Positions 7,604-57,760 of a stretch of DNA of 64,000 nt are shown piece after piece. Numbering within the stretch: position 1 is the first letter of the stretch; each line of letters opens with the position of its first letter. Where the stretch lies: assembly GCA_965113315.1 (NCBI GenBank), contig OZ220363.1; one strand, 5' to 3'. The position numbers and the translations under genes were made by a program. The notes below the pieces were generated by a model, which saw only the letters and a program-made list of their open reading frames with translations, made no database searches and was not told the DNA's origin. The stretch is from Podarcis vaucheri. Lineage: Eukaryota.

Positions 7604-7828
7604 ATCTCTATGGAAAAATCCAAGGTAAAATTTCTTAACTTATGCCTTCAGCTCATAGGTTATTCTGTTAGTCTGTATGGCTGATAACAAACTTTGTCCA
7701 GAAATCTACATCACAAATTTTGTGTCTTTGAGCTGAAGCTGCACCAGCCAACCAAGTAGGCTCTTGTCTGAACACAGAGGAGAAAGAGAATCCAAGTGCT
7801 ACAAAACTGTAATAACTCATTGGTTATA

Positions 7829-8070
7829 CAGTGGTACCTCGGGTTACATATGCTTCAGGTTACAGACGCTTCAGGTTACAGACTCCGCTAACCCAGAAAT
7901 AGTACCTCAGATTAAGAACTTTGCTTCAGGATGAGAACAGAAATTGTGCGGTGGCGGCACAGTGGCAGCAGGAGGCCCCATTAGCTAAAGTGGTACCTCA
8001 GGTTAAGAACAGTTTCAGGTTAAGAACGGACCTCCAGAACAAATTAAGTTCTTAATCTGAGGTACCACTA
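7829..8070 (+). mobile_element. Tc1/mariner (pogo/Tigger-type) MITE, copy 1
   Basis: TIR CAGTGGTACCTC...GAGGTACCACT(A), TA TSD, internal CAGGTTA repeats; four copies in the window. Confidence 0.9.
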
Positions 8071-8450
8071 TATACTAATGTATTCCAGACATCCAGTATG
8101 ACAGAAAGTGGGCTTTGGATATAATAAAGCTTATTCTGAACTTGACAAAAGATGGGATATTTTATATTTACAGTAGAAAAATCAGGTGGCTATGGTCTAG
8201 TTCACACAATGGTATTTACATGCCTCCAGAAGCCTCCAGAAGCCTGTAACAGTAATAGGTCCCCCCCCCCATACAGGCAGCCACTGACTTGCAGTTTAGT
8301 GCACATTTACTGTCCCATTGTAGAGGTGCCATCAATAGGCTGGTTGGTTGGTTGGTAGGGGTTGTAATGCAATTGTATGTTCATCACTTGCCAGCCTTTG
8401 CAGAGCTCTGTTCAGCCCACATTTCAGCGCATCCATTTGGTTGTGTGAAT

Positions 8451-20500: not shown

Positions 20501-20751
20501 GTAGGGTGTGGCCTGGAAACAGTTTCCAGACCACATTTCACCTCCAGGCCTAGGGTCCCCCAACCCTGAATTAGACAAACAGTGGAGGCAGCAAACAATA
20601 TTTTAAAGTGGCAACTACTGTTGTGAGTTCTCTAGCATAGGAATGACCAGTATTCTCAGACAGATGGACCTCTTCCCAAAAATTATGCTGAAACGTTACA
20701 GCCAAAGTCAAATATGCAAAAGCAAACAAAAGTGTCGAAAACTGTTCCCAC

Positions 20752-23700
20752 GTTCAAGAGACCCACGTAGCTAGGAAGCACAAAAAAATATTAATCAATA
20801 AAAGACTGGGAAATGAATTTGAATCCTCGGATAAAGAAAAGAAAAGAGGGGTGGTACTGTACGTTAAAAATAAAATTGAGGCTAAACAGATTTTTAAGGA
20901 TGAAGAGGGGAGGATGGTAGCGGTTAGACTAAATTGGCAAGGAGAAAATGTGGTTGTGATCGGGGTATATGCACCAAATGGCAACAAGACTGATTTCTTT
21001 AGAAACTTAGAAGAGAAAATACTAGAACATATGGATCAAAAGATTATTCTAATGGGAGACATGAATGGTGTGGTTTCGTTAGAGGCAGATAGACTAAGGG
21101 AGGGTGTAAGTAAAGAAGGGAAACTACCAAAATCCTTTTTTTCGATGGCTAAAAATTGCAACTTGGTGGACATTTGGCGTTTGAGACATCCACTGGATAA
21201 GCAGTTTACCTTTTATTCCGAACCACACCAATCGATGTCACGAATAGATCAGGTTTGGATCTCGAGTGAACTCTGTCCAAGAGTTAAACAAATAGAAATA
21301 AGACCAAAAGTAATCTCAGATCATAGTCCGATAGAACTAGAATTGGAGAGTCTTGAGAGAAGAACTTTTAGATGGAGGTTAAGAGAATACCTCCTAGACG
21401 ACCAAAATATTGTAGAAACAGCACAAAAACAGCTAAAAGATTACTTTGCAGACAATTGCGACAAAGGGACAAAGATCAATGTGATATGGGATGCAAGCAA
21501 AGCAGTAATAAGAGGATATTTCATTCAGCAGAATGCGATCAAAAACAAAAATAGAGAGAAAGGGAAAAAAGAAATCTTAGAACAAATAATGGACAACGAA
21601 CAAAAATTAATCCAGAAACCCAATTGCCAGAAAATAAAGGAAAATATCAAAATCCTACAAGCGCAATTTGCCACTATAATAAATAGAGAGGTAGAGTGGA
21701 ATATAAAGAAACTAAGGCAAAAGAACTTTGAATTCTCAAATAAATCAGGTAAATGGCTTGCATGGCAAATTAAAAAAAGGAAAGAACAAGGTACAATAAA
21801 CAAAATTATTGCAGATGGAGAAGAGATAACAGATCCAAAAGGAATTAGAAAAGAGTTTCTGGATTATTATAAAAACCTCTACAAGGATAAAGAGAGAAAT
21901 AACTTAAGGAAAATAGAGAGGTTTTTGAGAGACAAAAAGGTGCAGAAAATCCCAACAGATAAGAAACAACGATTGAATACTCCAATTGAAACAGAGGAGA
22001 TAGAGGAAGCCATAAAAGATTTAAAGAGAGGAAAGGCCCCGGGCCCGGATGGCTTCACAGCGGGTTATTATAAAGAGATGAAATCTATCCTGGTGAATCC
22101 TCTGAAGGTGACTATGAATAACATTCTGAAAAAAAGGAGAAATTCCGGAAACCTGGAAAGAAGCATTTATTACATTTATCCCCAAACAAGATGCGGACTT
22201 AACTCAAGTTAAAAATTATAGGCCGATTTCTCTTCTAAATACAGATTATAACATCTTTGCTGGTATCCTTGCGAGAAGATTGAAGTCGATATTATCAGAA
22301 ACTATCCACAAGGATCAGGCTGGCTTTCTTCCTGGCAGGCATATGAGGGACAATACAAGAAATATAATTAATATGCTAGAATATCTGTCTGCCAGGATTG
22401 ATAAGCAAGCCATAATGATGTTTGTGGACGCAGAGAAAGCATTTGATAATGTGATATGGGACTTCATGTTGAAAAATTTGGAGCATATGGAAGTGGGCAA
22501 GGACTTTTTTAAGGGGGTAAAAGCAATATATACGGAACAGAAAGCCAAACTGATTGTAAACAATATAGTAACAGAGGAAATAAAGATACAGAGGGGAACA
22601 AGACAGGGGTGTCCACTCTCCCCGCTACTATTTATAACAGTCTTAGAAGTTCTCCTAAACTCAATTAGGCAAAACAAAAAGATAAAAGGAGTGACAATTG
22701 GAGAAAACGTGTATAAGACTAAAGCATTTGCAGATGATTTAGTAATAATGACTGAAGATCCAGTGATTACAATAGAAGAAGTACTAAAGGAAATTGATCA
22801 GTTTGGGAAACTGGCAGGTTTCCAACTAAACAAGAGAAAAACGAAAATGTTAGTCAAAAATGTGGACCAAAGTGTGATAGACACAATCCAACACCAATAT
22901 CAGATAGAGGTGGTTAAGAAAGTGAAGTACCTTGGAATCTGGATAACACCCAAGAATATAGACTTGTTTAAGAATAACTACGAGTTGGTATGGAGAGAAA
23001 TAAGGAAAGATTTGGAAGTGTGGGGAAGATTAAAAATGTCATTCTGGGGAAGGATAAATACGATCAAAATGAATATACTACCGAGGGTACTGTTTCTGTT
23101 TCAGACTATTCCCATAATTAAGGGGAGTCGTATTTTTAAAGAATGGCAGAAAATGCTCTCAAGATACATCTGGCAGGGCAAGAAACCCAGGATCCAATTT
23201 AAACTTTTAACAGACATAAAAGAAAGGGGTGGGTTTGCCCTGCCAGACCTGAAGCTGTACTACGAGGCATCATGCCTCTGCTGGTTAAAAGACTGGATAA
23301 AACTAGAGAACAGGGAGCTGCTCGACTTAGAGGGCTTCGATAACAGATATGGCTGGCATGCCTACTTAGGACATGAGAAAAGGAAAGTACATAAGGGGTT
23401 TGGAAACCATGTTTTCAGAGGTCCAATTATTGAAATATGGGAAGGATACAGAAATTTATTAGAACCTAAGGTCCCACATTGGTTTTCACCTCTCGAAGCG
23501 ATGAGTGTGAAGAAAATCAATATGAGGAGTAACTGGGCGACATACAGTCAACTATCAGTTAAAGAAGACGGGAAGTGGAAAATAAAGCCCTATGAGCAAG
23601 TTAAGGAGCATGTGTATGATTGGCTACATCATCGTCAAGTTAACGAGATGTTCAGGAAAGATACTAAAGAAAGAGGGTATGCGGACAAAGACTCCAAATT

Positions 23701-24409
23701 TCAGATGGAAATTATAAATAATGATGTAAAAATAATATCTAAAATGTACCGGATGTTGCTGGATTGGAATCTAGGAGATGAAGAAGTGAAATCAGTAATG
23801 ATCCGCTGGGCTATAGATGTAGGCCATAGTATACAATTTGAGGAATGGGAGAAATTATGGAAAGAGGGTCTAAATTTCACAGCATGTATAACAGTAAAGG
23901 AAAATGTCATGAAGATGTTCTACAGGTGGTACATAACACCTGTAAAACTATCAAAAATGTATAAGATATCCAACAAATGCTGGAAGTGTAAAGATAGGGA
24001 GGGCTGCTTCTACCACATGTGGTGGGAGTGCCGGAAAGTTAAAGAATTTTGGGAAAGAATATATGTTGAGTTAAAGAAAATCTTGAAATATACGTTTAAA
24101 AAGAGGCCTGAAATCTTTCTGTTAGGGTTATTAGGGGAGGACATCGAAAAGAAAGATTGTAAATTTGTATACTATGCGATTACGGCAGCAAGGATAATTC
24201 TTGCCCAGAAGTGGAAAAAACAGGAGATGCCAACGATAGAGGAGTGGAGATCAAAGTTACTAGATTACGCAGAGTTAGACAGACTGACAGGAAAGATCAG
24301 ATACCAAAGAGACCAAAAGTTTATCAAGGACTGGGGAAAGTATTTGGAGTACCTGGAAAGTATCAGTGAGGGAAAAACGACGTTAAAGGGATTTAGAGAA
24401 GCACTGTGA
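20752..24409 (+). pseudogene. L1 ORF2 (APE endonuclease, RT, C-terminal Cys/His motif), N-truncated with one frameshift
   Basis: QETH, GDMN, RID and SDH endonuclease motifs; KAPGPDG; QGCPLSP; FADD; CWKC...HMWWEC. ORFs 20851-22212 and 22280-24409 join if one A is removed from A7 at 22129-22135. Confidence 0.93.
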
Positions 24410-27458: not shown

Positions 27459-27946
27459 TTTTTAAAACTCAGAAAAATTAGGGCAGGGAAATGTCCCGCT
27501 CCCCTCCCCCCCCCCCCAAGAAAAACCTGGGATGTAAGAAGACAGTGATTTCCATCCTATCATGGGTTCATCACAACCAGTGCTGTTTCTGTTCCACTAC
27601 ATTTCGGCTACCACTAAAGCCTACGTTGTTCATCTCACAATCCACCATGGCTGAAACCATATATAGTCAGCTAATTATGTAATTAATTCCAGTGCATTTC
27701 AATAAAAGGAAATTACATAATTATGTAACATTTGCATACTAAAAAAAATGATAGGAAATAGTGTGCATATTTGCTTGTGTGATATCCATTCCTGACCTCA
27801 GGTGAACATGCAAATTGCAGGAATTTCCACTCCCATTTCCACCAAATGCTCCAACATCCCTAGTTCCAAGAGGCTTTAAAAGAGGTCCCATAAAGTTCCT
27901 TAGCAAGATAATCCATTCAAGGAATTGTTGGAAGTTGTTCACATAG

Positions 27947-28399
27947 TGTCAGGGGATGATTAGCTGCTTGTGCGTAAAATAGTGCCCCTTCAGAGTTTGT
28001 GCGACCCCACAAACCTCTGTGTGTGACAGAGCTCCTCAGACATGTCTGCTCTAGTCACTTGTAGAGTCCGACAGTGGCTGTCTGCGGAAGCGCTTCCAGC
28101 AAAGAAGTTCCTTAACGGAAACGCGTCTCCTGGACTCACGACGTGACAGCTTCCGGCGAAGCATAGGTCTCCCTGCAGTTGCTTCTGACACCTCCCCGCT
28201 ATTTTCGCTCGAAGTGTCTCTCACCCCTTTCTCTCCCCTTCTGCTTCCTGCCTGGGCTGCTGCGTCTCTCTCAGCATTACTGAGATCCTCCTCCAGAGAC
28301 CCCGCGCTCCCCCTACTGGTCCCTGCTTTAGCTGTTGACTCTCTCCCAGTCTCTGGGAGCCCTACCACTTCCCTTTCCTCCGATGTCAGTTCCCTGACA
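27947..28399 (-). repeat. 3' LTR of the Gypsy element
   Basis: No difference from 33066-33518 seen on manual comparison. Confidence 0.97.
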
Positions 28400-31300
28400 T
28401 CCACCTCCCCTCCAGGGCCCCCCTCTCCCCCGCCCCTACTCTCTCCTCTGGGCGGTGAGGAGCTGAAACCCCTAAAAGAATCCTCCTCATCTTCCGACGT
28501 CTCGAACATTTCCCTCCATCGGTCTTCGTTCCGACTCGCTGAATCCTCCTCCACCTCGGAATCAGCGAACCCCTCCAACTCTTCTTCTTCGTCGGTGGTG
28601 GCGAAGTATTCCCTCCGGAACCTCGCCACTGGCTGGGGTTTCCGAGGGAATCTCTGATGAAAAGTTTCAATCAAAACCTCGTCATCTACATCCTCTGCCC
28701 TGACCCAGGTGTTTTCTGACTCCGGCTCCCCTTCCCACATTACCAAATACTCTACTTGCTCTCCCCTCCACCTGGAATCGAGAATCTCCGCTACATGGTA
28801 GCTGTGTTCTTTTTCCTCCATAGCTGGTCCCCTATTGACCCTCCCCTCTCTGTCCCCTATATACGGTGACAGCAATGATCTGTGGAACACTGGGTGCAAC
28901 TTCATGTGGTTAGGTAACCGGAGTCTGAAAGCCACTGGGTTGACCTGTTGCGTGACTTCAAATGGGCCCAGTCTTTTGGGTCTTAACTTCTTACAACCTC
29001 CTTTAAATGGTAACCCTTGGGTGGACAACCACACCTGATCCCCCACCCTAATGCTTTCTCCTTCCCTTCTGGTTTTGTCTGCCTGCCTCTTATATGCCTC
29101 CTTCGCCCTGTTTAAATTAAGTTGGAGCTGGCGATGGATCGCTTCCATTTCTTCAACGAACTGTTCTGCGGCTGGAACGCTCCAGTTCTCCCCCTCCCCC
29201 CCTGGGAAGGCTCGGGGATGACACCCGTGATTGGCCAAAAAAGGGCTCATTCCCGTGGACACGTTCTCCGCATTGTTATAGGCAAATTCTGCCAACGCCA
29301 GCTTCTCCACCCAATCATTCTCTCTGTCATTCACATAACACCTCAAATATTGCTGGAGGACACCATTAGCTCTTTCCGCCTGCCCGTTGGTTTCTGGATG
29401 ACGGGCAGTTGAGAAATTCACCTCTACATGCAATAAGCTCATGAGCTTCCTCCAGAACCTGGAAGTAAATTGTTTCCCTCGGTCCGAAACCACCCTCAAG
29501 GGGGCACCATGCAATCTAAACACATTTTCCACAAACAATTTAGCGGTTTCTTCTGCTGTGACCGCATGTGAGCAGGCTATAAAGTGGGCCATCTTGGTTA
29601 ACAGGTCTACCACAACCATAATGGCTGTCTTCCCTTTGGACCTGGGCAGATCAGTCATAAAATCTATTGCCACTGCCTCCCATGGTCTTTCCGGCGTGGG
29701 TAGTGGTTCTAATAAACCTGCCGGTGCCCGCCTCTCCCCCTTGGCTCGTTGACATCGGTCACACCCTCTCACATACTCCCGCACATCTTCCCTGACCTTG
29801 GGCCACCAGAATTCCCTGGTAACCAGCCACATGGTTTTGTGTTGCCCAAAATGCCCTGCTGTGGGGCTATCGTGCAGTTGCTTGAGTACCTTTTCCCTCA
29901 ATTCTCCTTCAGGTACGTATAACGCTCCCTTGTAGTACAACGCCCCGTTTCTCTCCTCAAAACCCCCGGGTTTGTCTCCCTCCCTCCTGAGACCCCTGAG
30001 TTTGTCCTGGGCATATTCATCCTGCACCGTTCCCTCTATCAGTTCCCTTAGCCCCACCAGTGCCGCCCCACACACCCAGCGATCCTCGGGAATGACATGG
30101 GTCTCTTCGGGTGCACCCTCTCCCTCCAAATATTCAGGTTTGCGTGATAGAGCGTCCGCCCTAACGTTCTCCTGGCCTGGTACGTAACAAATCTCAAAGT
30201 TAAATTTGGAGAACTCCTGGGCCCATCTCAACTGCCGTTGGTTGAGCACTCGCGCAGTTCTCCAATACTCTAGATTCTTATGGTCCGTGCGTACTTGCAC
30301 CTTCTGTTGTGCACCAATTAGTAGGTGCCTCCATCTCCGGAAGGCCTCATAAATCGCAAGAAGTTCCCGGTCATACACCGTGTAGTTTCTCTCCGATTTG
30401 TTCAGCTTTCGCGAAAAGAAGGCACACGGTCGCCACTCGGACCCCTCCTTCCCTGGCTGCAGAAGAAGCACCGCCCCTATGGCTCTGTCAGAAGCGTCTG
30501 TTTCGACCCTCAGCTTTTTTTGTAAATCCACATGTAGAAGTTGTTCGTCAGAGGCGAAGGCCTTTTTCAGTTCCTCAAACGCTCGCTCCGCCTCCCCCGT
30601 CCAAACAAACTTCTTTTTGCTGCTGAGACAGTCCGTGATGGGCGCCGTCAGGTGAGCGAAGTTTCGGATGAACTTACGATAAAAGTTTCCAAACCCTAGG
30701 AACCTCTGCACATCCTTCTTAGTCTTGGGGGTTTTCCATTCCAGCACCGCTTGAACCTTGCCGGGGTCCATGGCCAACCCCTTGTCTGACAAGCGGTACC
30801 CCAGGAATTCCACCTCCTTGGTATGAAACTGACACTTCTCCAGTTTCACCCACAGTCTGTTGGCATGCAGCCTGCTCAACACTTCTCTGACGTCTCTCAC
30901 ATGTTGCTCCTCATTCTCCGAATACACCAACACGTCATCTAAGAAGGCCACGCAATTCTTGTAGAGCAAAGGCCCCAGTACATGGTTCATAAAGGCTTGA
31001 AAACACGCGGAGCCTGCTTGTAATCCAAAAGGCATAACGAGATATTCAAATGCCCCCAAAGGGGTGAACATGGTGGTCTTCCATTCATCCCCTTTCCTTA
31101 TACGTATCAGGTTGTACGCCCCCCTTAGGTCCAGCTTTGTAAAAATCTTTCCTTTTCGCACCCTGGTCATAATATCATCAATCCTGGGCATAGGAAAAGC
31201 CACCGGCTCTGTCACTGCATTTAGGGCCCGAAAGTCACATACCAGTCTCGGCTTGTCCGTGTTCTTTTTATCCACAAAAAACACTGGGCTACCCCCCGCT

Positions 31301-32013
31301 GCCTTGGACTCTCTGATGAAGCCTCTCTTCAGGTTCTTGTCAATGAACGCTCGCAACTCCTGCATCTCCCTGTCTGACATGGCATACAACCTGCCTACAG
31401 GAAGCTGTGCTCCAGGGAGTAAATTGATCTGGCAATCAAAGGGCCTATGCGGGGGTAGTTGGTCAGCTTCCTTCTCGCTGAACACGTCGCTGAGATCAGC
31501 ATACTGTGATGGCACCTTCCCCTTCTCCATCACTTCCGTCCCTGCTAGGGTGGCTTGGGCCCCTGCTGACCCCTTTTCCCCCCTGCAGTGTTCTAAGCAA
31601 TGTGCGGAACCGAAGGAAACCACTCTTTGATGCCAGCCCACCAGCGGATCATGTAGGGCTAGCCAGCTCATTCCCAAAATAATGGGAGCGCCTCCCAAGG
31701 TGGCCACATTAAACGCTATCAGTTCTGTGTGCCTTGCCACCCTCATTATCATTGGGATGGTCTGCAAGCTGACGCCTCCTCCCAACAGTTCTCTGCCATC
31801 GATCGTGGTCACCTGCAGGGGGTTGCTTAAGGGGATAGTCTGTATCTGGTGTTCAGCCGCAAACTCCTTGCTCATGAAATTGCAGGAGCTGCCTGAGTCC
31901 AACAGCGCCTTTATTTTTAGGGGGTGTCCATTTTGCAACTCTAGCGACACTTCAATCACTAGAGCAGGTCGAGGAGCTTCTGGCACTGGCACTTGGGAAA
32001 GGGGCACTTTCAC
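28051..32013 (-). CDS. pol: Pol polyprotein (aspartic protease, RT, RNase H, integrase, chromodomain, long C-terminal tail); probably entered by -1 frameshift at 32061-32067
   Basis: LLDSGS protease; MPFGL...FLDD RT; TDAS...ELLA...TDH...ADALSR RNase H; H-x6-H...CDRC and D,D,E integrase; GPF; YHVAEILDSR...EYLVMWEG...ENTW chromodomain; 1320 codons without a stop. Confidence 0.97.
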   Translation of the reverse strand: MKVPLSQVPVPEAPRPALVIEVSLELQNGHPLKIKALLDSGSSCNFMSKEFAAEHQIQTIPLSNPLQVTTIDGRELLGGGVSLQTIPMIMRVARHTELIAFNVATLGGAPIILGMSWLALHDPLVGWHQRVVSFGSAHCLEHCRGEKGSAGAQATLAGTEVMEKGKVPSQYADLSDVFSEKEADQLPPHRPFDCQINLLPGAQLPVGRLYAMSDREMQELRAFIDKNLKRGFIRESKAAGGSPVFFVDKKNTDKPRLVCDFRALNAVTEPVAFPMPRIDDIMTRVRKGKIFTKLDLRGAYNLIRIRKGDEWKTTMFTPLGAFEYLVMPFGLQAGSACFQAFMNHVLGPLLYKNCVAFLDDVLVYSENEEQHVRDVREVLSRLHANRLWVKLEKCQFHTKEVEFLGYRLSDKGLAMDPGKVQAVLEWKTPKTKKDVQRFLGFGNFYRKFIRNFAHLTAPITDCLSSKKKFVWTGEAERAFEELKKAFASDEQLLHVDLQKKLRVETDASDRAIGAVLLLQPGKEGSEWRPCAFFSRKLNKSERNYTVYDRELLAIYEAFRRWRHLLIGAQQKVQVRTDHKNLEYWRTARVLNQRQLRWAQEFSKFNFEICYVPGQENVRADALSRKPEYLEGEGAPEETHVIPEDRWVCGAALVGLRELIEGTVQDEYAQDKLRGLRREGDKPGGFEERNGALYYKGALYVPEGELREKVLKQLHDSPTAGHFGQHKTMWLVTREFWWPKVREDVREYVRGCDRCQRAKGERRAPAGLLEPLPTPERPWEAVAIDFMTDLPRSKGKTAIMVVVDLLTKMAHFIACSHAVTAEETAKLFVENVFRLHGAPLRVVSDRGKQFTSRFWRKLMSLLHVEVNFSTARHPETNGQAERANGVLQQYLRCYVNDRENDWVEKLALAEFAYNNAENVSTGMSPFLANHGCHPRAFPGGEGENWSVPAAEQFVEEMEAIHRQLQLNLNRAKEAYKRQADKTRREGESIRVGDQVWLSTQGLPFKGGCKKLRPKRLGPFEVTQQVNPVAFRLRLPNHMKLHPVFHRSLLSPYIGDREGRVNRGPAMEEKEHSYHVAEILDSRWRGEQVEYLVMWEGEPESENTWVRAEDVDDEVLIETFHQRFPRKPQPVARFRREYFATTDEEEELEGFADSEVEEDSASRNEDRWREMFETSEDEEDSFRGFSSSPPRGESRGGGEGGPGGEVDVRELTSEEREVVGLPETGRESTAKAGTSRGSAGSLEEDLSNAERDAAAQAGSRRGEKGVRDTSSENSGEVSEATAGRPMLRRKLSRRESRRRVSVKELLCWKRFRRQPLSDSTSD
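28400..28413 (-). promoter_or_regulatory. Polypurine tract (plus-strand primer)
   Basis: Minus-strand GGAGGGGAGGTGGA directly before the TG of the 3' LTR. Confidence 0.85.
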
Positions 32014-32067
32014 TGCTCTTTGGCCTGGCTGCAGTGCCCTGCTGGCAACCAGGCGTTGGCTTTTACC
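32002..32067 (-). promoter_or_regulatory. -1 ribosomal frameshift signal (slippery heptamer and H-type pseudoknot)
   Basis: G_GUA_AAA in the gag frame, 6-nt spacer, stem 1 GCCUGGUUGC/GCAGCCAGGC, stem 2 GGGCACU/AGUGCCC; pol is in the -1 frame and open across this site. Confidence 0.8.
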
Positions 32068-33020
32068 TGCTCCGTTTCTCCCTGCTCTTCCCCCTCAACA
32101 GTTCCCACCATCCCTTGCCATTCCTTCCTCTGGGGGCAGACTCTGGCAAAGTGGCCTGGCTGTTGGCAGAGATAGCATTTCCGGGGTCCCTTTCCCTCCT
32201 TCTTCGCCCCCTCACTGGGCTTTGAAACTGCGCGCGCGCGGGCTGTTCCAATTTCCATCGGCTCTGCCGGCGGGAAAGCTGGCTCAGGAATGTCTGGAAT
32301 GCGTAACTCCTTCCAACGTTCCCCTCTCCCTTCCCGCCTCTCCAAGGCTCTTGCCTCCTGGCGCGCTCCAATGGTCAGCGCAGATTTGGTCAGCTGATCC
32401 ATAGACACCGCCCTGGGGCTCCTGGCCAGCTCGTCTTTCACAGCTGAAGAAAGACCTTCTTCAAATAGCATCTGAATGGGTGCTGCCGATAAATCCCACC
32501 CCAATCTGTGAATCAGCATGGTAAATTCAGTCCAGTACTCACGGACAGATCTGCTTCCCTGCTTGCAAGCCATTAGCTGTCTGCGCACTCCCCCCTCCTC
32601 AATATCGCTGGAGAACATGATATCCATTGCACGAAAGAATTTCATAGCGTCCTTCAGGATATCGTTGTGCGTTGCCATCAGGGGTCGAACCCAGTCCCGC
32701 GCCCCCTTCTCAAGATGCCCAATTACGAAAGCAACTCGGGATTCCTCATCAGGGAACTCATCAAACTGCACATTCAGGGCATATTGCATTTCAGTCCTAA
32801 AGGCATGGTAATCCTTGGGGTCCCCCCCAAACTTCTGCACTAATCCTGGTACCTTTCTGGGGAACTGAGTGGTTCTCCCCTTCTTGTCTGCATCTTGAGC
32901 CCTCCTCTCCTCGAGCCTCGCCGTCTGCAGCGCAAGTTGGACCTCCAATGCTCGGTATCTGTCTTCCAAGCTTGGACCAGCTCCACCCCCTGCGGCTCCG
33001 GCTCCTGCTGGGTCGCTCAT
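32010..33020 (-). CDS. gag: Gag (capsid and CCHC nucleocapsid), sushi/PEG10-like
   Basis: ATG at 33020 downstream of the PBS; KQGSRSVREY retrotransposon-gag motif; PMEIG; zinc knuckle CYLCQQPGHFARVC. Confidence 0.93.
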   Translation of the reverse strand: MSDPAGAGAAGGGAGPSLEDRYRALEVQLALQTARLEERRAQDADKKGRTTQFPRKVPGLVQKFGGDPKDYHAFRTEMQYALNVQFDEFPDEESRVAFVIGHLEKGARDWVRPLMATHNDILKDAMKFFRAMDIMFSSDIEEGGVRRQLMACKQGSRSVREYWTEFTMLIHRLGWDLSAAPIQMLFEEGLSSAVKDELARSPRAVSMDQLTKSALTIGARQEARALERREGRGERWKELRIPDIPEPAFPPAEPMEIGTARARAVSKPSEGAKKEGKGPRKCYLCQQPGHFARVCPQRKEWQGMVGTVEGEEQGETEQVKANAWLPAGHCSQAKEQ

Positions 33021-33052
33021 GATGCCTTCTCCTGCACAGGCAGCGTACAGAG

Positions 33053-33063
33053 ACTGTCGGACT
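33053..33063 (-). promoter_or_regulatory. Self-priming primer-binding site
   Basis: Minus-strand AGTCCGACAGT 2 nt after the 5' LTR, with no TGG/tRNA-type start; exact complement ACTGTCGGACT in the LTR at 33194-33184. Confidence 0.85.
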
Positions 33064-33065
33064 GC

Positions 33066-33518
33066 TGTCAGGGGATGATTAGCTGCTTGTGCGTAAAATA
33101 GTGCCCCTTCAGAGTTTGTGCGACCCCACAAACCTCTGTGTGTGACAGAGCTCCTCAGACATGTCTGCTCTAGTCACTTGTAGAGTCCGACAGTGGCTGT
33201 CTGCGGAAGCGCTTCCAGCAAAGAAGTTCCTTAACGGAAACGCGTCTCCTGGACTCACGACGTGACAGCTTCCGGCGAAGCATAGGTCTCCCTGCAGTTG
33301 CTTCTGACACCTCCCCGCTATTTTCGCTCGAAGTGTCTCTCACCCCTTTCTCTCCCCTTCTGCTTCCTGCCTGGGCTGCTGCGTCTCTCTCAGCATTACT
33401 GAGATCCTCCTCCAGAGACCCCGCGCTCCCCCTACTGGTCCCTGCTTTAGCTGTTGACTCTCTCCCAGTCTCTGGGAGCCCTACCACTTCCCTTTCCTCC
33501 GATGTCAGTTCCCTGACA
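33066..33518 (-). repeat. 5' LTR of the Gypsy element
   Basis: Direct repeat of 27947-28399; followed on the minus strand by the PBS and gag. Confidence 0.97.
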
Positions 33519-34481
33519 CATAGAAGCAAATGGAAATATCTTATGTGCTGGATGAGAATCTCATAGATCTTCTGTAAAAACGTTGGATCTTTTATCCACA
33601 AATAGTTACAGCTGTATGTCCATAATTCTAGCCTTTAAGGAGAAGCACTATGTTCCTTGGACAAGGATTGTGGAGCTTTACATTTTTACATTGGAAGGCG
33701 GGATAGCAGGATATATTCTAAAAAATAAAAATCAAGATTACAGTGTTAAAAGAGTGCGTCAAAAAGGATGTGCAGGAAGGAGGTGAAAGGAATATAACCA
33801 AATCGAAAGAAACAAGCCAGCTCTGCTTTAGTATGTAGAAGGCAGCCTATGGGAGAGCGAGTGTGACAGTTAAATCAGCAGGGTGTAAACAGGACAATCG
33901 ATGAGGATAAAGAGATTGCAGAGAAAGAAAATGATTTATTCCCATTGGTATTCACTACAGGAGAAGAACCACCTTAATGCTAATCTCTGTGGCTACTGAA
34001 GAAGAGACCACAAAAAAAAGAAAAGGAGCTCACAACACAGAGACAAAGGGGGAACCCTGTTGGATCAGGCCAAAGGCCCATCTAGTCCATCATTCTGTGC
34101 TCACAATGGCTAATCAGATGCCTGCAGGAACCCCAGAAACAGGAGCTGACCACAATAAGACCTGAGCACAAAACAGCACTCTCCTGTGTTTCACAGCATA
34201 TACCTCCTGGTAATGGACGACTAGCAGTCACTGAGAGCCCCATCTTCCATGAATTTGTCTAATTTCCTTTCAAAGCTGTCCAAGTGGGCAGCTCTCAAGC
34301 CCCTATTTAATATAAGGCAGGGTTACTCACTTTTTAAAGGCCTTCAATAGGAGGATATTTACTGATTTACAAGTTAACACAACTGCAAAGCACAATAAAA
34401 GCACAAGTACCAGCTTAAATAAGGGTGGGGAACTTGCTGCCCATGGGCCTATCTATTTGAAGTGAGCTTTCTCACTAAAGT

Positions 34482-35334: not shown

Positions 35335-36322
35335 CTGAGCTGAATCAATGTCTGGATATGGTAAAAGACTGGAGGACAGCCTACTAAATGATGCTCAATC
35401 CTGACAATACATAGACACCATTAGTAGGTGGTTGCACTGTCCAAATGCATAGAGTCCAACCTGTTCTGTAAAGGATGAAGTCTGTAACTTGGAAGAATCC
35501 AGTACTGTCACTGGAGGCATAAATGCCCTTGGTGACATGGAGTGCATTTGACCAGCTTAGACTGGCAGTCCAGCTATGTCCCTATCAGGATGTGGATAAC
35601 CTGGCTTCCTTGGTCTATGCTCTTGTAATATCCCATCTGAATTAATCTCAATGTACCTAGGGGTGCCTGTGAATTCAGACTGGTATTTCAGATAGTGCGG
35701 AATCTGGAGGCTAGATTGCCAATGGAGAGTCGGCATTTAAAATTTATTACACCGGTCCCTGCCCATCTACACTGTCTTCCAATTCATTTCCAGGTCTAAT
35801 TCTATAGAGCCTTGCACAGCTAAGGACCCAGGGCCTAATGGTATCCCTCTTCTCATTTGTGTCCTGCCCTAAGACCCTCCACAAAGGCTCTCCTCTAAAG
35901 TCTCTGTCCTTCTAAATTACAGACAGTGGCAACAAGTTAGAGTGTTTTTGGTGGCCCCCTCTCCATCTGTGGAAAGAGGCTCACATAGTCTCTACTCTAG
36001 TCATTTCAGTGCCAGGCAACCTTCCTCTTCCCCCATTTCTCAGAAATGGTTGATTTTTACACCCTTTAACATTTTAATATTTTGAATACTATTTATTGTA
36101 GTCCCTGTATAAATCTGGCAGCAATTGCTTATTGCTTGTATTGGTGTGGTTAGGTTGCTGTGACACAATTGTGTCAGGGTTGAAGTTGTTTTCTAATTGT
36201 GGTTTGACTTGTTTTATTCATTAATAGTTACGTATTGAAAGTTTGTGTTGATTATTCTCTGATGTTTTAAATCTGTTTTATTATAGATAGCCTAGAGGCT
36301 TCTGCACAAGGCGACAAACAAA
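35335..36322 (+). mobile_element. Old, degraded L2-clade LINE 3' part
   Basis: Recognisable similarity to 60094-60796 (AATCCTGACAA, CCAGCT..G.CCCTA.C.GGA, TGGTCTATGCTCTTGTAA, CTACACTG.CTTCCAATT) with many stops and indels; boundaries approximate. Confidence 0.65.
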
Positions 36323-36324
36323 TA

Positions 36325-36565
36325 CAGTGGTACCTCAGGTTAAGAACTTAATTCGTTCCGGAGGTGCGTTCTATACTGAAACTGTTCTTAACCTGAGGTA
36401 CCACTTTAGCTAATGGGGCCTCCTGCTGCCCCTGCGCCGCCGCTGCACGATTTTTGTTCTCATCCTGAAGCAAAGTTCTTAACCCAAGGTACTATTTCTG
36501 GATTAGCAGAGTCTGTAACCTGAAGCGTCTGTAACCTGAAGCATCTGTAACCTGAGGTACCACTG
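36325..36565 (-). mobile_element. Tigger-type MITE, copy 3
   Basis: CAGTGGTACCTCAGGTTA termini, TA TSD. Confidence 0.9.
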
Positions 36566-36581
36566 TACAGTAGATAGAGAA

Positions 36582-47559: not shown

Positions 47560-47895
47560 ATAAGAGCTGTTCAACAGTGGAACAGACTAGTTCAGAAGGT
47601 GGTGGATTCTCCTTCATTGGAGGTTGTTAAACAGAGGTTGGATGGCTGTTTGTCAGATTTTTTTATTTTTATTTTTTGTTGTGGCTCCTGCTTTGCAGGA
47701 GGTTGGACTAGATCAGGCACCCCCAAACTCAGCCCTCCAGATGTTTTGGGACTACAATTCCCATCATCCCTGACCACTGGTCCTGTTAGCTAGGGATGAT
47801 GGGAGTTGTAGGCCAGAAACATCTGGAGGGCCAAGTCTGGGGATGCCTGGATGAGATGAACCTTTGGAGCTCTTTCAACTCTACAATTCTATGAT
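47560..47895 (+). mobile_element. CR1 3' fragment interrupted by a hAT MITE
   Basis: TAAGAGCTGTTCAACAGTGGAACAGAC...TCTACAATTCTATGAT tail. Confidence 0.8.
47714..47849. mobile_element. hAT/Charlie-type palindromic MITE
   Basis: CAGGCACCCCCAAAC...GTCTGGGGATGCCTG; degenerate 8-bp TSD GACTAGAT/GATGAGAT. Confidence 0.8.
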
Positions 47896-48921: not shown

Positions 48922-49849
48922 AGCCAATGCCAATGAAGACGGAATCAGGATTCAAGATGACCTTAACACATTGGAGAACTGGGCCAAAGCTATCAAAATG
49001 AATTTTGATAGGTACAAATGTAAGATTCTACATTTAGGCAGGAATAACCAGCTGCACAAATAGAAGATGGGGAATGACAAGCTTAACATGAATCAACAGT
49101 GTGGTGCAGCAGCAAAGAAAGCTGATGTTATTCTAGGCTGCATCAATAGACGTTTAGTGTCCTGATAAAGGAAAGTAATAGTCCCACTCAATTCTGCCTT
49201 GATCAGACCACACCTGGAGTACTGTGTCCAATTCTGGGCACCACAATTTAGGAAGGATATTGACAAGCTGGAATGTGTGCAGAGGAGGGCAACCAAGATG
49301 ATCAAGGGTCTGGAAACCAAGCCCTTTCAGGAATGGTTGAGAGAGTTAGTTATGTTTAGCCTGGAGAAGAGGAGACAAAGGAGACATCATAGCCATTTTG
49401 AAATATCTAAAGGGATGTCACATAGAGGATGGAGCCACCTTGCTTTCTCCTGCTCTGGAAGCTAGGACCCAAACAAATGCATTCAAGTTATAAGAGAGGA
49501 GAGTCCACCTAAACATCAGGAATAACTTTCTGACAGTAAGAGCTGCTTGACAGTGGAAGGTGTTAGACCAGGCTTCCTCAACCTCGGCCCTCCAGATGTT
49601 TTTGGCCTACAACTCCCATGATCCCTAGCTAGCAGGCCCAGTGGTCAGGGATGCTGGGAATTGTAGTCTCAAAACATCTGGAGTGCTGAGGTTGAGGAAG
49701 CCTGCATTAGATTATCCTTCCTTGGAAGTTTTTAAGCTGAGGTTGGGTGGCCATCTGTCTTTTATGATCTAACTGATTCCTGCACTGCAGGCAGTTGTAC
49801 TAGATGACCCTTGGGGTCCCTTCCAAATCTACAATTCTCTTATTCTATC
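48922..49849 (+). mobile_element. Older CR1 LINE 3' part, interrupted by a hAT MITE
   Basis: Translated [24 protein letters not shown]; similar to 6923-7603 with stops and deletions; degenerate ATTCT tail. Confidence 0.9.
49569..49704. mobile_element. hAT/Charlie-type palindromic MITE
   Basis: Perfect TIR CAGGCTTCCTCAACCTC/GAGGTTGAGGAAGCCTG; degenerate 8-bp TSD TGTTAGAC/CATTAGAT. Confidence 0.85.
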
Positions 49850-57205: not shown

Positions 57206-57278
57206 GCCCTGCACAACTGAAGATAGCACTTCTGATGAAATGGACTCTAGTTCATGAAACCACATGCCATAATAAATA

Positions 57279-57504
57279 CAGTGGTACCTCGGGTTACAGA
57301 CGCTTCAGGTTACAGACTCCACTAACCCAGAAATAGTACCTCAGGTTAAGAACTTTGCTTCAGGGTGAGAACAGAAATCATGCTCCGGCGGCGCAGCAGC
57401 AGCGGGAGGCCCCATTAGCTAAAGTGGTACCTCAGGTTAAGAACAGTTTCAGGTTAAGAACAGACCTCCAGTACGAATTAAGTTCTTAACCCGAGGTACC
57501 ACTG
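57279..57504 (+). mobile_element. Tigger-type MITE, copy 4
   Basis: CAGTGGTACCTCGGGTTA...TAACCCGAGGTACCACTG, TA TSD. Confidence 0.92.
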
Positions 57505-57760
57505 TAAAGGCTAGAAGATTCTTCATTGCTTGGGGGTAAACGATGAAGGGTTCAGACACCTCACATGGTTCCAAATATCCTAAGACATGCCAGTAAATGT
57601 TTAACATTTGCCAAAGTGCTAATATTCATTATGAAATATCTGTCATTAAATGCTTACCTCCTTTATTCTTTCTGCACACCACAGTAAGATACTGAGCATG
57701 AGAGATGAGTAGAATGACTTGCCCAAGGCTGCCCAGTGATTCTATGATTGGATCAAATTT

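Follow-up and report, generated by a model that had tools for sequence, protein, structure and literature searches.

An 11-nt LTR stretch as the likely self-primer of a chromovirus in the lizard Podarcis vaucheri

A retrotransposon of the lacertid lizard Podarcis vaucheri carries, just past its 5′ LTR, a primer-binding site (PBS) of non-tRNA type, and we asked what primes reverse transcription of this element. The window, by which we mean the whole stretch of 64,000 nt that was analyzed, had been read in a preliminary description as holding a tRNA-independent self-priming signal, with the PBS pairing to the predicted 5′ end of the element RNA. Self-priming has so far been shown for yeast Tf1; for its vertebrate relatives it is, in those parts of the literature that we cite, only a proposal based on complementarity. 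The vertebrate Tf1/sushi lineage is the source of PEG10 and RTL1. In Tf1 the RNA is cut between bases 11 and 12 and bases 1-11 become the primer through RNase H (PMC7175516), and the mode, shown for Tf1, is implicated from fungi to vertebrates (PMC6317226, PMC7175516, PMC11011659, PMC4600332). The element spans 27947-33518 on the minus strand, with the following parts:

33519..33523, minus strand: TSD, upstream copy
33066..33518, minus strand: 5′ LTR, 453 bp, TG..CA, 8-bp terminal inverted repeat
32010..33020, minus strand: gag, 336 aa counted from the first ATG, with capsid and CCHC zinc knuckle
32002..32066, minus strand: gag/pol overlap, an A-run and then a candidate H-type pseudoknot, predicted -1 frameshift site
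28051..32094, minus strand: pol frame, -1 to gag, with protease, RT, RNase H, integrase, chromodomain and tail
28400..28413, minus strand: polypurine tract (PPT), adjoining the 3′ LTR
27947..28399, minus strand: 3′ LTR, same sequence as the 5′ LTR, U3 portion protein-coding
28065..28075, minus strand: copy of the 11-mer in the 3′ LTR, translated as pol codons, with the stop 7 codons after its second base
27942..27946, minus strand: TSD, downstream copy

Both LTRs are identical at 453/453 positions, a 5-bp TSD flanks the element, and the gag and pol frames are free of stops; together with the TG..CA ends, these features make the element intact as far as its sequence tells, in line with the preliminary description, which had announced an intact amniote example. 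Such an example is unsurprising, because reptile chromoviruses of the Tf1/sushi lineage are in print, and Amn-san is described as active in reptiles (PMC4131045). LTRs with TSD, gag and a pol of order PR-RT-RH-IN were all found, a chromodomain (PF00385) was detected at the integrase C-terminus (E 8.6e-12, residues 1099-1148) and the best PDB match of Pol was Ty3 Gag-Pol (E 8.5e-137); on these features we classify the element as a Ty3/gypsy chromovirus. Pol contains RNase H motifs and lies in the -1 frame to a CCHC gag, as in the members of the Tf1/sushi group outside fission yeast, frameshifting being predicted. Gag resembles the PEG10 capsid weakly (E 7e-4). The nearest named proteins are from Podarcis muralis (92-96%), and the protein relatives listed come from lizards, snakes, amphibians, fish and fungi, many of them with PF00385. 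An RT query against viral contigs found no relative. The element is very probably a vertebrate member of the Tf1/sushi group. The family is young and high-copy: an LTR-leader query of the genome gave 2,784 candidates, 40 of which were scored, and the LTR pairs were identical in 26/82 sampled elements.

Some further features of the window were noted on the way. In the gag/pol overlap (32066-32002, minus strand) the A-run was invariant in 89/89 copies and is not a standard slippery heptamer; after a short spacer comes a hairpin, and its loop is paired with a hexamer further downstream, which makes the structure a candidate pseudoknot for -1 frameshifting. Outside the element, two long overlapping A-rich ORFs of 506 and 759 aa (20692-24409, plus strand) probably belong to a LINE, and short dispersed repeats with terminal or internal inverted repeats (47714-47850, 49568-49704, 7826-8074, 36322-36567 and 57276-57506) are probably MITEs.

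The pol frame runs into the 3′ LTR, where U3 (window 28399-28051) encodes the final 116 Pol residues, acidic and then basic. It was open through the PPT and the entire U3 in 77/83 3′ LTRs, and in 82/83 it stopped 7 codons into the frame of the primer copy. Variable sites in the coding U3 concentrated at third codon positions (53/117, versus 29 and 25 at the other two; p 1e-4); U3 indel lengths were not usable as a test of the frame, as old copies were aligned in pieces. In more distant lizard relatives (proteins P0041 and P0046) the Pol tails end in a basic Arg-Arg-Ser-Ala-Arg stretch, which we take to resemble the HMGN nucleosome-binding core.

We then considered the PBS itself, together with the LTR sequence that could pair with it:

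33053..33063, minus strand: primer-binding site, non-tRNA-type, AGTCCGACAGT
33064..33065, minus strand: spacer between LTR end and PBS, 2 nt (GC)
33184..33194, minus strand: predicted self-primer, ACTGTCGGACT, 11 nt, predicted RNA bases 1-11, with pairs 7 and 10 covarying with the PBS

The PBS begins two bases past the end of the 5′ LTR (33066), and its exact complement in the LTR forms 11/11 pairs with it; the 11-nt match at 33194-33184 on the minus strand had been claimed before and is indeed there. An LTR complement of at least 11 nt to bases starting 0-5 nt past the LTR arose in 7/10,000 dinucleotide shuffles. In the window's sequence the computed pair probabilities for bases 2-11 were 0.96-1.0. 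The duplex is not extendable on the 5′ side, 33195 being C in 222/222 copies and facing C in 219, and the pairing ends exactly at 33194 in 220/222 copies.

A host tRNA, a tRNA half or another small RNA might instead prime, in which case the LTR:PBS pairing would be a packaging or translation-control structure. No TGG was found in the 30 nt after the LTR, as previously noted for the PBS, so that a tRNA-type PBS was not seen there. Among a partial set of 56 distinct host tRNA genes, the best match reached 7-8/11 for each of three PBS versions, which agrees with the earlier expectation that no host tRNA would match. This set spans only 23 anticodons, and tRNA-Ser(GCT) has an 8-nt complement spanning the LTR end and the PBS, both of which leave some room for a host primer. 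A stronger argument than the partial tRNA comparison is that a host primer should keep the PBS constant, yet the PBS has three states in the window family and two more in a second family. Considering also that errors at -1, directly upstream of the 11-mer, are absent (see below), we regard a host primer as extremely improbable.

If the LTR stretch is the primer, the two 11-mers should change together, as had been suggested, and across the family they do. Pattern searches were counted over the whole genome, where a perfectly paired copy matches on both strands and a mismatched copy once. Pair 7 (33188:33059) was G:C in 583 copies, A:T in 828 (calculated as (1,659 strand matches - 3)/2) and mismatched in 3. 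At pair 10 (33185:33062), A:T replaces C:G in older copies; the 477 strand matches correspond to at most 238 copies and imply at least one mismatch, and 50/50 places among the matches listed matched both strands. Altogether, about 1,650 copies stand behind these counts. When 30 old copies were chosen by gag alone, all 30 had A:T at pair 10 and 24/30 were fully paired. Among 60 distinct copies picked by gag or by similarity, drawn from 116 distinct gap-free rows, 98.8% of the primer:PBS cells were paired, versus 18-36% in slid registers. For the two-helix structure, 47 cells were changed on both sides, a number reached by 0/500 shuffles of a kind that ignores kinship. The partner variants at 33188/33059 and 33185/33062 also appeared in contig sets X4, X5 and X6 (X4 and X6 being one sample), which show the partners but not how they are linked.

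Copies are not events. When the 22 paired columns were left out and a tree was made from 222 copies, pair 7 changed on both sides 3 times and pair 10 once, so that covariation within the family amounts to about 4 independent events; a sign test on independent pairs had only 4 and 1 pairs (pairs 7 and 10), too few to reach significance. The 222 copies remain after 6 duplicates were taken out of the 228 loci that had passed a filter on PBS-leader motif and coverage. The copies lost to this filter include 6 of the 30 old ones, and pattern matches supplied many of the rows, so no frequencies are taken from this set. On these trees, a position outside the duplex was conspicuous as well: window 33050, the third base past the PBS, flips between C and T 19-30 times, far above its neighbors, possibly reflecting recombination near plus-strand transfer.

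The same arrangement was found in a second family, present in the flanks, whose Pol is 56-57% identical to that of the window element. Both of the elements with a readable PBS (2/2) pair 11/11 with their own LTR after a 2-nt spacer; between the two elements 2 pairs differ, each with compensation. By-eye comparison showed that the pairing letters differ from those of the window at 8/11, and in both families the duplex is 11 nt long, with first base A after C and last base T. A third element of the second family has no 5′ LTR in the DNA examined, and base 11 of its 3′ LTR is C instead of the T of its two relatives, a single case. Further, pol of the second family too ends a few codons past the primer, in the same codon phase, and an AATAAA is present ~65 nt downstream of the primer. 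A third family is known from LTRs alone, with no internal region. Contig C41, on which both families have nested insertions and many of the oldest copies lie, may be a repeat-accumulating chromosome.

These data bear on the view that the complement is due to chance and that the 11-mer is conserved only for the coding of the Pol tail. It is true that the 3′ LTR copy of the 11-mer codes for protein and that both covarying primer bases are third codon positions of pol there. But the shuffles seldom produce such a complement, the PBS, which is non-coding, still follows every change, and the second family contradicts this view, as does the substitution hotspot described next; we assign it a virtually negligible probability.

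The hotspot concerns a single base:

33184, minus strand: primer base 11, substitution hotspot, common to both LTRs; predicted cut between 33184 and 33183

Base 11 was other than T in 110 LTRs, while with the same flanks base 10 was other than C in 3 and base 12 other than C in 1; a similar pattern found 0 LTRs with a base other than C at -1. Of 100 matches listed, 88 made up 44 two-LTR pairs lying 2-6 kb apart (32 with A, 7 with G and 5 with C), indicating that mostly both LTRs of an element carry the change. PBS base 1 was unaltered in 15/15 5′ LTR loci with a base-11 variant and in 18/18 carriers of the tree set. In 89 elements picked by gag, 82 of which had both LTRs, base 11 was changed in both LTRs of 5 and in one LTR of 1. 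The 18 carriers require 17 changes on the 222-copy tree, and hence the change recurs and is seldom inherited. Junction events agree in position: in two elements bases 10-11 were replaced by one A, and in one element a 17-nt duplication restarts at base 12 after an A, and both LTRs of each of the three have the junction at base 12. We also searched for stray copies with a truncation from -4 to +17; there were none, and all 6 matches came from 3 elements with junction indels. Among the matches listed, 41/44 pairs fall in the A7 background and 3 in the G7 background of the window, a skew that we cannot explain and that counts against the self-priming reading.

Base 11 is singled out by these pattern counts and not by a nearest-neighbor count of private changes present in both LTRs of 82 elements, in which it scored 4 against a mean of 0.42 and one U3 site scored 5 and another 4, so that this measure alone does not distinguish it. 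A second hotspot just past the PBS (33052) was looked for, and with 3/222 copies changed nothing clear was seen. The rate at base 11 is a lower bound, because an added A would be invisible.

How can one base mutate so often, and in both LTRs at once? Such an error would be expected of minus strong-stop DNA that stops opposite base 12, where Tf1 is cut, and this is likely the origin of the hotspot. The hotspot supports placing the end of the copied template at 33183 and would fix the cut, not the start; the position of the predicted cut after primer base 11 is in this way indirectly supported. HIV-1 shows a change to G, in ~5% per cycle, at the base that immediately precedes the capped template end (PMC12172438), and untemplated additions have been reported for Tf1 RT (PMC3185545). 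The A-rich spectrum in the lizard fits an uncapped template end, although some errors may be of the cap type, G accounting for 7/44 pairs.

The HIV-1 case suggests another explanation, namely that the RNA has a capped start at 33183 and that the hotspot is cap copying at an ordinary U3/R border, the 11-mer pairing with the PBS from the 3′ copy in the RNA or never. The HIV-1 hotspot is indeed directly upstream of the start and has a similar rate (PMC12172438), and the 7 G pairs would fit. Cap copying gives G, yet 37/44 pairs have A or C; the primer would also be left unexplained, considering that no tRNA of the partial set fits and that the PBS tracks the 11-mer, and the location of the hotspot on the last paired base would be a coincidence. 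A capped start at 33183 is in our opinion highly unlikely, and we return to self-priming by the LTR stretch.

Where that RNA would begin was approached from the LTR. The start is predicted at or near 33194, where the sequence context resembles an initiator. No TATA-like box was found in the LTR, and neither AATAAA nor ATTAAA was present in the LTR or in R-U5 (window 33194-33066) of 222 copies. The working repeat for strand transfer would begin at 33183, in which case the 11-mer in new LTRs would come from the 3′ copy, like U3. Self-priming may also proceed with other details, either with an RNA start a few bases upstream of 33194 and thereby release of a longer piece, or with a host nuclease making the cut in place of the element's RNase H. 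This is compatible with a hotspot that fixes only the template end at 33183 and with the missing TATA-like box. On the other side, the pairing stops at 33194 in nearly all copies, as given above, both families share the 11-nt duplex with A after C at its start and T at its end, RNase H motifs are present in pol, and Tf1 uses bases 1-11 and RNase H; we consider such departures unlikely.

As Tf1 requires three duplexes for self-priming (bioRxiv 10.1101/2022.12.06.519325), we examined the leader for the other two:

33082..33092, minus strand: U5 arm of a candidate U5:leader duplex, 0/11 sites variable at >=5% in 222 copies
33034..33044, minus strand: leader arm of the candidate U5:leader duplex, 10/11 pairs

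The three-duplex fold is matched in part only: the central primer duplex is present, the U5:leader duplex has 10/11 pairs and the third has at most 3 conserved pairs. The U5 arm is invariant (0/11 variable sites, versus 21/91 upstream). The U5:leader duplex was matched by 15/2,000 shuffles in one test, which it passes, and by 251/2,000 in an energy test, which it fails, and showed a two-sided change in only 1/60 rows. Energy folding gave it a probability of 0, the primer and U5:leader duplexes forming a pseudoknot that cannot be represented jointly. The leader as a whole folds no better than shuffles (z -1.3).

With the pairing, the covariation, the non-tRNA-type PBS and the base-11 hotspot in both LTRs next to an unchanged PBS, the self-priming interpretation of the preliminary description is supported, the absence of a match in the partial tRNA set and the independent hotspot at 33184 adding to the covariation. 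We hold it very likely that the lizard chromovirus primes reverse transcription with its own 11-nt LTR stretch, and the element likely works like Tf1. The RNA would start at or near 33194 and fold back onto the PBS, and would then be cut after base 11 (33184), probably by the RNase H of the element, by analogy with Tf1 only. Minus strong-stop DNA would extend as far as base 12 (33183), which the cut would have turned into the 5′ end of the RNA and at which RT may sometimes add an untemplated base. After transfer to the 3′ repeat, extension of the mismatch opposite base 11 would place the change in both LTRs, while the PBS would keep the parental base. The double changes may arise when the PBS is rewritten from the retained primer, as reportedly happens in Tf1 and assumed here from that element only. 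The exact start, too, is modelled on Tf1.

Self-priming in vertebrates is already proposed in print; we add covariation in ~1,650 copies and a footprint that gives the position of the predicted cut. We are inclined to go further and, with somewhat better than even confidence, see in base 11 a fossil of RNA cleavage and minus-strand transfer at single-base resolution; it would be the first in-genome footprint for a vertebrate self-primer, and template ends could be mapped in this way from sequence alone in any high-copy LTR family. In these lizard families the primer would in addition have a coding role, supplying the last codons of the Pol tail, which extends over the whole of U3. The literature searched held no report of a cut-site hotspot at the last base of a primer or of a self-priming lizard element, which is weak evidence, as key primary papers lay outside the search. 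The coordinates are exact enough for RNA tests, the predictions being a capped end near 33194 and an uncapped end at 33183, and the hotspot approach could decide the priming mode of other families from genome sequence alone.

Among the closest known systems, Tf1 and Tf2 of S. pombe and Tj1 of S. japonicus are likewise Ty3/gypsy chromoviruses with an 11-nt LTR stretch complementary to the PBS (PMC7175516, PMC4600332, bioRxiv 10.1101/2022.12.06.519325). With Tf1 the lizard element further shares the inferred template end at base 12, the Tf1 cut position, and a candidate PBS-adjacent duplex with U5. Unlike Tf1, described as having one ORF and no CCHC, it lives in a vertebrate host and has a CCHC gag with a -1 frame pol; its U3 and primer copy are coding, it has no TATA-like or AATAAA hexamer, its third duplex is weak, and the mechanism, shown for Tf1, is inferred for it. 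The vertebrate Tf1/sushi elements are described with the same chromodomain integrase, predicted -1 frameshift, predicted self-priming, 5-bp TSD and TGT..ACA ends; their published support, in the sources cited, is sequence complementarity, to which the lizard family adds covariation and a hotspot. The Sushi LTR model has an AATAAA and an AT-rich box, both absent from the lizard family (PMC3601003). The HIV-1 U3-R junction is similar in that one base directly upstream of the template end is altered at ~5% and fixed through minus-strand transfer, but there the end is capped at the start and the change is to G, whereas in the lizard it is mostly to A and falls on the final base of the PBS complement, with none at -1 (PMC12172438). 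Plant CRM and some beet chromoviruses likewise carry the pol frame through the PPT into the 3′ LTR, while the lizard element has its chromodomain ahead of the PPT and a frame that runs through the whole of U3 and also the primer copy (PMC3605345). Finally, tRNA-primed Ty3/gypsy elements have a PBS that starts with TGG and matches a tRNA 3′ end, features not found in the lizard element when it was compared with the partial tRNA set.
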